Shown one piece after another: positions 2,413 through 12,108 of a stretch of DNA of 12,108 nucleotides. Positions within the stretch are counted from its first letter, which is position 1; the number at the start of each line of letters is the position of its first letter. The position numbers and the translations under genes were made by a program. A model generated the notes under the pieces. It worked only from the letters and a program-made list of their open reading frames with translations. It did no database searches and had not been told where the DNA came from. Origin of the DNA: a virus (lineage: Duplodnaviria > Heunggongvirae > Uroviricota > Caudoviricetes); IMG/VR virus record IMGVR_UViG_2737471846_000027, positions 1 to 12,108 of that record. The stretch is one strand, 5' to 3'.

Positions 2413-2694
2413 TTACCGCCGCAACCGTTCCGGCTTCTTCCAGTGGTACGTGATTTTCTCCTTCTCCCGATACATCTCCACGCGGCGACGGTATGTCAGC
2501 AACTCAAGGACTCTGGTTCGTATGTTGCGCATATCCACGCCGTTAAGCTCAATACCATCACGGCGCATCACCTCAGCAACAACACGCGCATAATTTTCAG
2601 CGGTCACGCTGTCCGGTTGCGTGCCCTGTTCGTCATGCTGCTGGCTGATTCCGGTAACGCGGCGGATTAATCGCAGTAGTTCGGCTTCTGTCAT
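2413..2694 (-). CDS. Hypothetical protein (93 aa), last gene at the int-distal end of the island
   Basis: ORF in the same orientation as the island genes. No family recognised. Its 3' end overlaps one copy of the 2246–2290 / 2378–2422 repeat. Confidence 0.45.
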   Translation of the reverse strand: MTEAELLRLIRRVTGISQQHDEQGTQPDSVTAENYARVVAEVMRRDGIELNGVDMRNIRTRVLELLTYRRRVEMYREKEKITYHWKKPERLRR

Positions 2695-2724
2695 TGTGCC
2701 CCCATCGTTCTGATAGCCTGGTGT

Positions 2725-2950
2725 CGTCGGGTCCTTCCTGGAATTATGGCCCGTTACGGGGCGGCGACCTCGCGGTTTTTATCTGTTTATGAAAATTTTC
2801 CGGCAAAAGTCAGATCCGTTCTTCTTCTCTGTAACAGACTGTTTAAAAATGAAAATATTAAAAAAAGAAAGGATCTGACACGAGGCATTTTAGCCAGAAA
2901 ATGTCATTATCAGATCCTTTCTCATTTTTGTTCAATAATTGCGCGTCTGT
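2725..2950 (+). other. Lambda-family cos site, copy 1 (cosQ-like, cosN GGGCGGCGACCT at 2759–2770, lambda-like cosB)
   Basis: Bases 2759–2800 read GGGCGGCGACCTCGCGGTTTTTATCTGTTTATGAAAATTTTCCGG, near-identical to the lambda left end as I recall it. Patchy lambda similarity continues about 180 bp through the cosB region (CCGTTCTTCTTC, AAAAGAAAGGA, CCTTTCTC). It is oriented rightward, convergent with terS. Confidence 0.8.
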
Positions 2951-3492
2951 TACTCGCCTTTCTTCTGTAGCAACTTTTCCGGTACGTTTCCGGTTGTTTC
3001 GTTCAGGTAATCAGCCAGTATCTGTGGGAGATTGTCGGCAACTCTGGCACTGGCATTACAGGCTTTAACCACTTCCCTTTTAAGCCCATCCAGCATAGCG
3101 GTGGTAATGTGTGGGAAGCTCCTTTGCATAGTAAGCGGGAGGCTGTCCATGATTGAAGAAATCTGACTTGCCAGTTTTGAAAGCGCGTACATGCAAAACT
3201 CTGTATCAATCACGTCACCGCGTTCGCGCTCGTTTTTAAGTTCCTGCGCCTCTGCCTGTGCTGTCAGCAATCTGATCCTGACTCGTAGGAGTTCATCATC
3301 ATCAATCTCGTCCGTTTCGTTTGTAATCTGGCTGATTGCATTGTTAACCCGATTATCTATTACACTGGCGACATCATAAAACGCCTCACGGCCCTTACGC
3401 TCGACGGGAATCACTCCCCACTTATCGAACGCAGTGGCGCTTACTCGGCAGCTTTTCGCCATGGTTTTTTTATTCATCAGGTGCGATTTCAT
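2950..3492 (-). CDS. terS: Terminase small subunit, lambda Nu1 family
   Basis: Translation aligns with lambda Nu1 over its length as I recall it (LTAQAEAQELKNERERGDVIDTEFCMYALSKLASQISSIMDSLPLTMQRSFP versus lambda LTRAQADAQELKNARDSAEVVETAFCTFVLSRIAGEIASILDGLPLSVQRRFP). The ORF track starts it at GTG 3504; I prefer ATG 3492 (MKSHLMNKK...), which has a GGGGG Shine-Dalgarno 6 nt upstream. Confidence 0.9.
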   Translation of the reverse strand: MKSHLMNKKTMAKSCRVSATAFDKWGVIPVERKGREAFYDVASVIDNRVNNAISQITNETDEIDDDELLRVRIRLLTAQAEAQELKNERERGDVIDTEFCMYALSKLASQISSIMDSLPLTMQRSFPHITTAMLDGLKREVVKACNASARVADNLPQILADYLNETTGNVPEKLLQKKGE

Positions 3493-3504
3493 CAATACCC
3501 CCAC

Positions 3505-3669
3505 TTAATTAATGCTTCAGGTTGGTGTGTTGGTGTTATCTTTCCCTTTTTATTCATAGAGATAGAGCGAACAACAAAACCACCACCACCAACCCGAAAA
3601 GGCTCATAAATAGCGAAAAACCGCGAGGTCGCCGCCCCGTAACGGGTCCATATGCCGGAAAGGACCCGT
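3505..3669 (-). other. Lambda-family cos site, copy 2 (cosN at 3626–3637 on the minus strand, cosQ-like inverted repeat 3642–3669, divergent cosB with CACCAAC/GGTTGGTG repeats), immediately upstream of terS
   Basis: The reverse complement of 3601–3670 reads ...GGGTCCTTTCCGGCATATGGACCCGTTACGGGGCGGCGACCTCGCGGTTTTTCGCTATTTATGA, matching the lambda cosQ/cosN junction. The roughly 120 bp between cosN and the terS start contain repeated CACCAAC units instead of lambda R elements. Confidence 0.8.
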
Positions 3670-3696
3670 AAAAAAAGCCGGATTTCTCCGGCCTGT
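3670..3696 (-). terminator. Rho-independent terminator after the decoration gene
   Basis: On the minus strand, a GCCGGA/TCCGGC stem with a 4-nt loop is followed by a T7 run. A near-identical hairpin recurs at 5582–5603. Confidence 0.6.
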
Positions 3697-3765
3697 CTCA
3701 GATGGTTTTCAGTATGCGATCGATGTCGCCGTCATCGCCCGGGGTTCTGCCATCGTTCCCCCTGC

Positions 3766-9825: not shown

Positions 9826-9882
9826 AAACTATCAGCGCCGTGGTGTGAGGTATTACGGCGCATTGCTATGCAGGACAACACA

Positions 9883-10056
9883 ATGACCGATAAAGAATTG
9901 ACCAAAACATTATCACCGGCACGGAAAAGACGGCGCAGAAAGATAGAGCATGAATCAGAAAGATTCGCGCCATGTGCTTTTGCCCTTGAGCAATTCCTTA
10001 AAGAGTACAGGGAAACGCGCCCATTGCAGGTATGGCAACGAACTGAACCAGACTGA
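9883..10056 (+). CDS. Hypothetical small basic protein (57 aa from ATG 9883; the ORF track starts at 9868)
   Basis: It follows the RHH gene on the same strand, with an AGGA about 9 nt before ATG 9883, and precedes the plus-strand terminator. It carries an RKRRRRK basic patch. Weak call. Confidence 0.3.
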   Translation: MTDKELTKTLSPARKRRRRKIEHESERFAPCAFALEQFLKEYRETRPLQVWQRTEPD

Positions 10057-10150
10057 TAGCATTGCCCACCAGCCTGATAGCGGCTATCATCCCCGTGCTT
10101 ATGTTTGGGATCATATACACATAAGGCGCAGCGGGTTATCTGTTCAGAAA

Positions 10151-10179
10151 GGCGGCTCCATTTCGGGGCCGCTTTTTTT
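10151..10179 (+). terminator. Rho-independent terminator ending the RHH operon (possibly bidirectional, also serving alpA)
   Basis: An 8-bp GC-rich stem (GCGGCTCC/GGGGCCGC, one G-U pair), a 5-nt loop and a T7 run. Confidence 0.6.
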
Positions 10180-10325
10180 ATGCCTGAAAAACCCCAATTT
10201 TGTGGTTTTCCAGTCTCACCAGGGCGAACGAATCCCCGCCCACGTTCTGGCGTATATTCAATCTTCATGGTTATAGCTCTGTGTTCAGATGATTGATGTG
10301 TGGCGGCTGTGTGCCGCCAGCGTGA

Positions 10326-10514
10326 TTAATGAACTGCCTTGCAGCTATCCTTCCAGGCCAGAACCTCGGATAAAGACCAGCCAACGGAACGACCGCCAAG
10401 TTTACGACGTGATGGGAATTGTCCGGCCTTTTCCAGGCGGTAGCGACACGTACGGCTAAGGCCGGTTAGTTTTTCGCATTCTTTTTCACGTATAAACCGA
10501 TCAGTGCTTAACAC
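10326..10514 (-). CDS. alpA: AlpA-family phage transcriptional regulator / excisionase-like protein
   Basis: The 62-aa product shares the AlpA pattern with CP4-57 AlpA as I recall it (LTGLSRTCRYRL...FPSRRKLGGRSVGWSLSEVLAW versus TGMARATIYDWL...FPKKRMLGVKSVGWIEAEIDEW). It has a GTG start with a GGGGG Shine-Dalgarno. Confidence 0.85.
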   Translation of the reverse strand: MLSTDRFIREKECEKLTGLSRTCRYRLEKAGQFPSRRKLGGRSVGWSLSEVLAWKDSCKAVH

Positions 10515-10878
10515 TATTGCCCCCTTTCGTTTCTTAAAGAGTCATCAGGTGTCTTATTGTGTCGTATTGTTCCCGCTAGAGTGATGAATGGCAAATACTG
10601 AGGATGTATGATTTACAGAAAATGAAAAAGTAAGAATAAAATCTTTTAAATTCATGTTAATACAAAGGCATAAAATATTGTTCCATGCCTTTTTTCTCGC
10701 TCTTTAAAGAGTGATTCGCTAGTGTATAAAAAACCAGCAACACATTAAAAATCAGCTACTTATAAATCCGTACGCTTTTTCGCCTCTTGTTCGTAGTTGT
10801 TCCACATTGTTGCTCATTGTTGCACGTTGTATCTGTTCGCATATCCAGTATGCGCATACTGAAAAAACACGAAAAAAA

Positions 10879-12108
10879 TTATTTTCTTCTGGCTACTGGT
10901 AGCGTGGTTACGTTTTCATGTGTTCCCGCCAGTATCCCTAACCGCTCCGTCCACATATCCAGCGCATTGCGTTTCGCATCCAGATAACGGGAATGATTAT
11001 AAACTCGCTGCATTCCTGGCATCTGGTGGCCTGTAAGCTGCTCCACGACATGCGGATCAACGCCTAAATCGTTCAGCATGGTTGTAAAGGTGCGCCGGAT
11101 GTCATGCAGTGACCAGTGAGGGTGATTAAGCCTCCTGTGCGCTAATCTTCCATACTGCGATACGCTGGCCTCCTGTTTCACTTCCCCCAGCAATAAGCCC
11201 GTGTGCCTGTTCTGCTCCACCAGCTGCGTGATGAACGGCAGTATTGCTTCCGGTATAGGCCGGAATATGGCTACCTTCGTTTTGCTGTGCTCCTTCGGAA
11301 CGGTCCAGAGCATTTCGGTAAAATCCCACTCGCTGATCTCCGATAACCTCAGTTCTACCGTCCGGCATCCGAACACAATCAGGAGGCGGATTAACGCGAT
11401 GTAGTAGGGGGAGAATATTTTTTTGTCCAGTGCCTGCAATAATTCGCCCAGTTCTTTGGTGCTTAAGACACGCTCGCTTATATCCGGTTTTTTCCCAACG
11501 TCCGCCACACTCATATCATCAAGAACGTTGCTGATTGCATAGCGCCGCCTCCGGCAGAACTTAAGCGCCTGTTTGCACGTCTGTAGCAAGAATCCGGCAG
11601 TAACAGGCGTTCGCTTTGCCACCTGGTCAAAACAGGCCAGCCAGTGCCGTAGCTCGCATTTATCCAGCGGCATAGCACCAATGTGCTGTATTACGTGATT
11701 ATTAAGGCGCTTTTTCAGGGCGGCATAATCCACGCGGTTTTCCTTTGCGTACGACTCAAGCCAGTAGGTGAGCGCATCGCCAACCGTTACCGGCTTTAAC
11801 GCTTCCTGTACGGTGTAATTAAGCTCATGACGTGGATTTTTCCCCTCTGCCAGCCATGCGCGACACTGGGCGGCTTTTTCCCTGGCTGATTTCAGGCTCA
11901 GATCAGGATAATTTCCCAGCTTAATGCGTTCCGGTGGTGCCCCCCTTCCCGTTCCGGCCCTGTAAGTGAAATACCAGGTTAAAAGGCCACTGGTTGAATG
12001 CCTGACGCTCAGGTTTCCACCGTCATTAAGAAAGGCTGTTTTTTGGGCGGGTGTGCCGTTGATTTTCCTCAGCTGTGTATCGCTCAGTTTGTTAAGTGCT
12101 CTGCTCAT
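10879..12108 (-). CDS. int: Tyrosine site-specific integrase, P4-like family; start codon at the last base of the window
   Basis: The 409-aa product has an N-terminal arm-binding-type region and a C-terminal catalytic domain with R...HxxR...Y residues (HDIRRT, LTGH, YNHSRY). Confidence 0.95.
   Translation of the reverse strand: MSRALNKLSDTQLRKINGTPAQKTAFLNDGGNLSVRHSTSGLLTWYFTYRAGTGRGAPPERIKLGNYPDLSLKSAREKAAQCRAWLAEGKNPRHELNYTVQEALKPVTVGDALTYWLESYAKENRVDYAALKKRLNNHVIQHIGAMPLDKCELRHWLACFDQVAKRTPVTAGFLLQTCKQALKFCRRRRYAISNVLDDMSVADVGKKPDISERVLSTKELGELLQALDKKIFSPYYIALIRLLIVFGCRTVELRLSEISEWDFTEMLWTVPKEHSKTKVAIFRPIPEAILPFITQLVEQNRHTGLLLGEVKQEASVSQYGRLAHRRLNHPHWSLHDIRRTFTTMLNDLGVDPHVVEQLTGHQMPGMQRVYNHSRYLDAKRNALDMWTERLGILAGTHENVTTLPVARRK

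Follow-up and report, generated by a model that had tools for sequence, protein, structure and literature searches.

We have analyzed a 12,108-nucleotide stretch of DNA (referred to below as the window; positions 1 to 12,108 of the IMG/VR virus record IMGVR_UViG_2737471846_000027) that carries a genomic island adjoining the phoQ gene. We put at roughly 88% the probability that this island, inserted between phoQ and roxA (ycfD), belongs to the EcCICFT073 family of phage-inducible chromosomal islands (PICIs). EcCICFT073, an island of E. coli CFT073 also known as 'O-island 51', is the model Gram-negative PICI (Fillol-Salom et al. 2018 ISME J; 2019 Mol Cell). An earlier note, made from the letters of this window alone, had read the island as a satellite with a new packaging strategy based on a capsid shell of its own. 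The overall interpretation given there is partly supported by the present analysis: the satellite is right and the new strategy is wrong.

The first 1461 bases of the window are phoQ, on the plus strand (PhoQ_Sensor, E = 2.5e-87), with DNA 99.8% identical to that of E. coli K-12. The phoQ stop codon is overlapped by an attachment (att) core, AAATATGTCC, which is the reverse complement of the 10-bp core GGACATATTT published for EcCICFT073 at the ycfD-phoQ site (Table S1 of Fillol-Salom et al. 2018 gives the coordinates, site and core of that island). Right after this core the window parts from the empty phoQ-roxA site in an alignment to K-12. The island begins here and not at position 2413, where the earlier note had placed its start. 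A second copy of the core lies 172 bp beyond the start of the integrase gene (int) in two related loci, JNE151685 (L001; its island is labelled H1) and 05-3629 (L004); the other loci compared were CFT073 (L002) and a related island, L005. The length of the island is estimated at ~10.8 kb, extending ~180 bp beyond the end of the window. Three related genomes have roxA after int, and in JNE151685 and 05-3629 both roxA and pepT come directly after it. Since roxA bounds the island after int in these relatives, no genes of the element are hidden beyond the window, a portal, large terminase (TerL) or protease gene included. A tRNA scan of the window found no gene, and the att site of the island is therefore not a tRNA. 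A search for the same island in other genomes, as proposed earlier, located it between phoQ and roxA in 19 complete E. coli genomes (at least 80% coverage); the counts given below for the capsid module and for the terS and rppA cassettes refer to 5,426 complete E. coli genomes.

The supported genes of the island all lie on the minus strand except for two small plus-strand open reading frames (ORFs) (Table 1). Profile searches and a cluster of RGGTAGA repeats confirm the satellite gene set recognized in the earlier note, namely int, alpA, a primase of the P4 family and an iteron origin, and they equally uphold its assignment of gpE, gpD and Nu1 homologues. Genes for a portal, TerL, scaffold, protease and tails, described there as missing, were not found in the window by ORF, Pfam and PHROG scans, and neither were lysis genes. 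The window thus holds the features by which Gram-negative PICIs are recognized: att and int, AlpA downstream of int, a primase with iterons, small size (for this type about 10-15 kb) and a cos/terS packaging module. It shares with EcCICFT073 the ycfD/roxA-phoQ site, the 10-bp core and two inverted exact copies of the lambda cosN. The gene order is also the same, running from int through alpA, small ORFs, DUF4222, the primase, the iteron origin, ssb and a 68-amino acid (aa) ORF to the capsid and decoration genes, then cos, a specificity gene, an inverted cos and a 93-aa ORF. Between the decoration gene and the DUF4222 gene (3748-8698) the two islands are colinear, with ~90% nucleotide identity.

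Table 1. Features of the island in the window, ordered by position
Feature	Position	Strand	Evidence or remark
att core AAATATGTCC, int-distal island end	1460..1469	n/a	overlaps phoQ stop codon
tandem ATTAACTACACC repeats	1543..1566	n/a	Tandem Repeats Finder
~800 bp without supported gene	1620..2412	n/a	dispersed 26-43 nt direct repeats
conserved protein, 93 aa	2413..2694	-	phrog_1561, E = 7.5e-56
cos site A, facing terS 3' end	2728..2930	+	cosQ-like box, cosN 2759-2770, lambda-like cosB
Nu1-family small terminase (TerS), 180 aa	2950..3492	-	ATG at 3492; ORF opens at 3504
cos site B, just upstream of terS start	3505..3672	-	cosQ-like box, cosN 3626-3637, private cosB
terminator-like hairpin at end of capsid operon	3675..3694	-	n/a
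gpD/SHP-type head decoration protein homologue, 111 aa	3766..4101	-	Pfam HDPD 2.1e-17
gpE-type major capsid protein homologue, 351 aa	4113..5168	-	Pfam Phage_cap_E 3.4e-51
68-aa conserved protein	5168..5374	-	phrog_3255, E = 8.5e-46; stop overlaps capsid start codon
single-strand DNA-binding protein	5612..6022	-	Pfam SSB 3.5e-15
conserved small protein	6019..6333	-	phrog_1231, E = 2.3e-52; 83 aa in RefSeq annotation of relatives
iteron origin	6382..6600	n/a	11 RGGTAGA copies across both strands, immediately 3' of primase gene
primase-helicase (Pri/Rep), 584 aa	6617..8371	-	Pfam D5_N, DUF5906, Pox_D5
DUF4222 protein	8368..8667	-	Pfam E = 5.4e-24
three small overlapping ORFs	8673-8945, 8893-9129, 9119-9373	-	phrog_2196, phrog_5146, phrog_340; orthologues annotated in JNE151685
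Icd-like cell-division inhibitor, 65 aa	9324..9521	-	NCBIfam NF033153, E = 5.2e-18
Arc/YlcI-like protein	9652..9825	+	phrog_228/phrog_21027 cover this gene and 9868-10056
small protein of no assigned function	9868..10056	+	divergently transcribed pair with Arc/YlcI-like gene
AlpA regulator/excision factor	10326..10514	-	Pfam Phage_AlpA 5.4e-17
tyrosine integrase, 409 aa	10879..12108	-	Pfam Arm-DNA-bind_3 and Phage_integrase; start codon is last window base

Small terminase and cos sites

The gene between the two cos sites encodes a full-length small terminase of the Nu1 family, with matches to Pfam Phage_Nu1 (2e-23; score 83 bits, the cutoff being 30) and to phrog_57 (2.5e-52). Aligned with lambda Nu1 (181 aa) it is 37% identical over 164 shared positions, and the alignment reaches the C-terminus of Nu1; the linker that follows the winged-helix domain is shortened, and there are 13 additional residues at the C-terminus. 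The closest phage TerS is gp1 of N15 (44% identity), and none in the phage collection reaches 60%. Among islands the protein is a mosaic: its C-terminal half is nearly identical from one island to another and its N-terminal, DNA-binding half comes in two versions. A private, shortened version is found in the window, 05-3629 and L005, and a version like that of phage 21 in H1 of JNE151685 (L001 8843-9427). Measured over the whole protein against the phage-21-type TerS of CFT073 prophage 4, the H1 TerS is 60% identical as opposed to 33% for that of the window.

The exact 12-base lambda cosN, GGGCGGCGACCT, occurs twice, once on the plus strand in site A and once on the minus strand in site B, and both copies lie inside a 76-nt inverted repeat flanking terS. 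The lambda-identical cosN reported in the earlier note, and with it the expectation that the helper is a lambda-family cos phage, are therefore retained, but the single cos assumed there is not, since two inverted copies flank terS. Alignment with lambda shows that cosQ-like, cosN and I2-like segments are conserved at both sites. The two differ in cosB, which we compared among four islands, lambda and CFT073 prophage 4 over the 200 bases lying downstream of every cosN. At site A the cosB consists of an R3-like (2809-2826), an inverted R2-like (2862-2879) and a direct R1-like segment (2910-2928). The R3-like segment reads CAGATCCGTTCTTCTT, as against CGTTTCCGTTCTTCTT for lambda R3; the R3 zone as a whole is 69% identical to that of lambda, and it is 100% identical in the window, H1 and L005 and near-identical further on. 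At site B the cosB has GGTTGGTGGTGGTGG, followed ~50 bp downstream by an inverted CACCAACACACCAACC, and inverted repeats of the GGTTGGTG type. This cosB differs from those of lambda, CFT073 prophage 4 and the Rpp-type PICI cos; it is 89% identical between the window and L005 and unlike the others compared. In H1 the terS-proximal cosB is 21-like, with 74% identity to the R3 zone of CFT073 prophage 4. Across islands, then, the terS-proximal cosB co-varies with the N-terminal domain of TerS. As comparative evidence, this points to an island TerS that, like its lambda counterpart, recognizes the cos adjoining the start of its gene, and to a joint exchange of DNA-binding domain and cosB as one specificity unit.

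The cos-terS-cos cassette is common. With at least 80% coverage it is present in 487 genomes (the rppA cassette of EcCICFT073, described below, is in 53), and it also occurs at further att sites such as tqsA. In JNE151685 H1 the inter-cos segment, which comprises terS and both cosB (window 2728-3672), is inverted (L001 8626-9649). Such a flip could arise by homologous recombination between the 76-nt arms, or by terminase cutting and religation, the latter because cuts at both cosN give identical overhangs. We considered and rejected the idea that the cassette is a frequent invertible switch, as the inverted junction was found in 6 genomes against 495 with the orientation of the window. A further cosN-like sequence with one mismatch is located within the primase gene (7218-7229); when up to two mismatches were allowed, 4 of 200 shuffled sequences equalled the window.

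Capsid genes and packaging

The capsid protein is 95% identical to c1499 of CFT073, for which a crystal structure is available (PDB 3BQW, CFT073 prophage capsid; E = 7e-229), and 42.5% identical to lambda gpE (7VI9; 1.9e-81). The decoration protein is 96% identical to CFT073 c1500 and 34% identical to lambda gpD, and it matches both gpD and the SHP protein of phage 21 (PDB 1TD0, 3.6e-13). Terminator-like hairpins bracket the capsid operon. Within it the E-like gene precedes the D-like gene (window 3766-5168), the reverse of lambda, where D precedes E (5747-7160). When the window is compared with CFT073, the ratio of nonsynonymous to synonymous substitution (dN/dS) comes to 0.115 in the capsid gene, with a dS of 0.23, and to 0.084 in the decoration gene; since these values are near 0.1, selection maintains both proteins. 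Together with the 68-aa protein they form a module found in 598 of the complete E. coli genomes (about 11%), and in the EcCICFT073-type PICI family the gpE-like and gpD-like genes constitute an accessory module that is conserved.

Two variations on this module were seen among relatives. The decoration gene is frameshifted in one of them. Many others carry, after the decoration gene, a third gene of 137 aa that the window does not have (L002 7084-7497; L005 12999-13412); in L005 its product is named 'head-tail connector' by RefSeq, and in CFT073 'hypothetical protein'. This protein has a weak PHROG match (1e-8) to the C-terminal part of a head-maturation-protease family. In view of this match it may be a Nu3-type scaffold or an FI homologue, although BLASTP against lambda Nu3 and FI gave no similarity.

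By analogy with EcCICFT073, the island would be set in motion by a lambdoid cos helper phage that activates alpA, whereupon Int and AlpA would excise the ~10.8-kb element. Replication by the primase-helicase, starting at the iteron origin just downstream of the gene for this enzyme, would then yield concatemers, to be cut at the lambda-type cosN and packaged as multimers of about four units (~43 kb) into full-size heads built of helper proteins, which would join helper tails. The diverged winged-helix domain of TerS is most likely to recognize the private cosB at site B, and its C-terminal half would recruit the helper TerL; the lambda-like R3-R2-R1 cosB of site A may be usable by the helper TerS. 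EcCICFT073 is the only island for which helper-dependent induction, packaging, high-frequency transfer and interference have been demonstrated by experiment, the phages used being prophage 4, lambda and phi80.

Some observations weigh against assigning the island to the EcCICFT073 family and its mode of packaging. Only one att core is present within the window, the int-proximal copy falling outside it. The last ~30 residues of TerS are unlike those of both lambda and 21-type TerS. No helper can be named, the phage collection having been queried with cos site A (2720-2950) only; that query returned partial cos matches, with 73-83% identity over 40-65% of its length. A literature search found no experimental study of TerS-type islands or of the cassette. 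Moreover, the strong purifying selection shows that the capsid and decoration genes do something that the published assays missed.

What this might be bears directly on the proposal in the earlier note that the gpE-like and gpD-like proteins form the island's own shell on the portal and scaffold of the helper, giving small capsids for one 10-11 kb genome. The intactness of the two genes, the selection upon them and their retention in 598 genomes speak for it, as does the precedent of Ccm of SaPIbov5 (a Staphylococcus aureus pathogenicity island, SaPI), a capsid homologue that alters capsid size; furthermore, the tests made on EcCICFT073 did not cover the TerS-type variant. The authors of the EcCICFT073 work, citing that precedent, tested the capsid idea themselves. 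Deletion of c1499 or of c1500 neither restored lambda plaques nor reduced transfer, so that interference and transfer were both unaltered; a c1499::cat island was transferred by phage 80 at up to ~10^6 transductants per ml; and all DNA extracted from the particles was phage-sized, from which they concluded that the capsids are full-sized. They could detect no phenotype for c1499, and the architecture is in any case usual for E. coli PICIs. Because the deletions in EcCICFT073 were without effect and the DNA inside the particles had the size of the phage's, we regard an own shell with small capsids as very unlikely. A broader version, only slightly less doubtful in our judgement, is that the gpE/gpD-like pair has a structural role missed in EcCICFT073, or serves as a decoy against non-helper phages, and that TerS and its cosB may free packaging from the helper TerS. 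With particular helpers, for example, the pair might assemble jointly with the helper's head proteins into shells that are chimeric or specific to the satellite. The notion that the island is a decayed lambdoid prophage which has kept a few head genes can be given hardly any credence. It draws on the lambda-family homology of the head and packaging genes and on the cosN identical to lambda's, but int, alpA, the primase and the iteron origin have all stayed intact, the element is compact and of conserved size, and in relatives the same att core stands at both ends. In addition, the capsid, decoration and TerS proteins are merely 33-45% identical to their phage counterparts, the E-then-D order is the reverse of lambda's, purifying selection acts on the genes, and mobility of the prototype EcCICFT073 has been shown by experiment.

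The alternative with the most substance, possible although we doubt it, concerns TerS itself. In EcCICFT073 the place between the two cos sites is held by RppA (c1503, 144 aa), a truncated TerS mimic that heterodimerises with the helper TerS, blocks recognition of the phage cos and redirects packaging to the island's cos1. The TerS of the window sits exactly at the rppA position and might act likewise, forming hetero-oligomers with the helper TerS that block helper packaging and redirect the complex to the island cosB. TerS is the presumed ancestor of Rpp proteins, the island TerS and lambdoid TerS share a well-conserved central oligomerisation region, and transfer of the prototype strictly requires the helper TerS. 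On the other hand, Rpp proteins have 139-154 aa and are thought to be without the C-terminal part that binds TerL, while the protein of the window is full length (180 aa) and aligns to the C-terminus of Nu1. It has no similarity to RppA (BLASTP E = 7.3), and in a search of PDB sequences it gave no match at E <= 1, where RppA by contrast finds RppC at 5e-31. We do not class it as an Rpp, because it lacks similarity to RppA. Its C-terminal half may engage the helper TerL, as in SaPIs, which we favour, or the helper TerS, as in Rpp, or both. A P4-like satellite, finally, would fit with the P4-family C-terminal domain of the primase (TIGR01613), AlpA, the integrase and the Icd-like gene, but calling the backbone P4-like is justified for the primase domain only. 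Homologues of Sid, Psu, Delta and Epsilon were however not found in Pfam, PHROG and NCBIfam scans, the cos is of the lambda and not the P2 type, and a published comparison keeps P4 and these PICIs as distinct lineages with few proteins in common; membership in the P4 lineage is thus exceedingly improbable.

Replication, regulation and non-coding segments

The origin of a PICI is defined by its position immediately 3' of the primase or replicase gene, and the iteron cluster of the window occupies that place. Twelve RGGTAGA matches were found in the window as against ~1.3 expected, and none of 200 shuffled sequences reached this number. The assignment of the primase C-terminal domain to the P4 family is by a narrow margin (TIGR01613, 109.1 bits against a cutoff of 108.7). 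The island of 05-3629 at phoQ has a different replication gene (L004 14774-16183), a RepA-family helicase with an internal stop, and its left half is 99.9-100% identical to the window in 2700-3760 and 3766-5374. The pairing of a near-identical left half with a RepA-family helicase shows that replicon modules are swapped within the family.

At the position equivalent to 9652-10056, YlcI/YnfO family proteins are annotated in relatives. A 314-aa ORF at 9324-10268 lies antisense over the two plus-strand genes; it has no family match, and its last 65 codons are the Icd-like gene, so we did not retain it as a gene. The 93-aa protein has orthologues in L001, L002, L004 and L005, the one in EcCICFT073 adjoining phoQ.

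Two kinds of repeats are found between phoQ and this gene. The tandem ATTAACTACACC motif (window 1543-1580) recurs as a pair at the int-proximal end in JNE151685 (L001 18914-18988), and so stands just inside both ends of the island; from their sequence and placement these repeats are probably arm-type binding sites for the integrase. The stretch 1620-2412 contains direct repeats such as GTTTCCGAAAATATCAGCGGGTTAGC, in four copies, and GCGCAATTTTGCGC palindromes. Parts of it can be found in 1,086 E. coli genomes; no annotated feature coincides with any of the 12 matches listed. No Rfam family was found in this stretch; an ORF of 106 aa there (1779-2099) was set aside, as it has no Pfam or other family match and is unannotated at that place in the related genomes listed. 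For the window as a whole, Rfam (E <= 1) returned only three chance-level eukaryotic matches (two microRNA precursors and an XIST motif), far under the gathering scores.

Comparison with other satellites

The element is of an already known kind at a known site; the substitution of TerS for Rpp is uncharacterised but common. The departures from EcCICFT073 are few. The 144-aa RppA there and the 180-aa TerS here have no detectable similarity, and the cosB beside the specificity gene is another one. EcCICFT073 has perC and the 137-aa gene mentioned above, both of which are missing from the window, and near the phoQ end the window has ~600 bp of additional non-coding DNA rich in repeats. In the capsid and decoration genes there is no departure at all. 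The premise of the earlier note that classical PICIs carry no capsid genes fails already with c1499 and c1500 of EcCICFT073, and according to a later paper 21 of the 29 reference Gram-negative PICIs have a major capsid gene, which is not required for transfer.

This agrees with the SatelliteFinder catalogue. According to Moura de Sousa et al. (2023 NAR), the PICI core consists of an integrase, a regulator, a primase-replicase, a capsid-morphogenesis gene and a small terminase, and 375 islands have all five components, 97% of them in E. coli. All five are present in the window in the canonical order, which makes the island a textbook complete form of a PICI, Type A in that scheme; its ~10.8 kb is near the median, and the forbidden tail, holin, portal and head-tail connector genes are not present. 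Nothing substantive differs from this type, although the catalogue is a bioinformatic one that, in the available text, does not separate Rpp-type from full-length-TerS-type islands. The architecture taken earlier for a novel satellite strategy is thus the catalogued norm for E. coli PICIs. As a discovery the island matters little: its architecture has been described since 2018, a model exists at the same site, and it falls in a category of standard software. Strong purifying selection and presence in ~11% of complete E. coli genomes point to some function of the capsid and decoration genes in this family, but the window makes nothing newly testable in this respect.

With the head modules of lambda, 21 and N15 the island shares the cosQ-like box, identical cosN, I2-like segment and R-type repeats, and homologues of Nu1, gpD and gpE at E-values from 1e-17 to 1e-81. 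It differs from them in its amino acid identity of only 34-44%, in the placing of E before D, in having two inverted cos rather than one, and in being without A, W, B, C, Nu3, FI and FII. The capsid-forming PICIs (cfPICIs; Alqurainy et al.) are likewise satellites with a major capsid protein and TerS, but they add TerL, portal, protease and head-tail adaptors or connectors, with which they build complete small capsids. We considered this class and rejected it, as TerL, portal, protease and connector genes were undetected in the window and roxA ends the island in relatives. Ccm of SaPIbov5, from the Gram-positive PICIs, is comparable by description in that it is a capsid homologue on a cos-packaged island; it makes small capsids, however, and the orthologous capsid gene in EcCICFT073 has no such effect. 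In SaPIs, as proposed here, a satellite TerS redirects the large terminase of the helper, but their helpers are pac (headful) phages and the present island is cos-type. TerS-type islands would make it simple to find out whether a cos-type satellite can do without the small terminase of its helper, as the pac-type SaPIs do.

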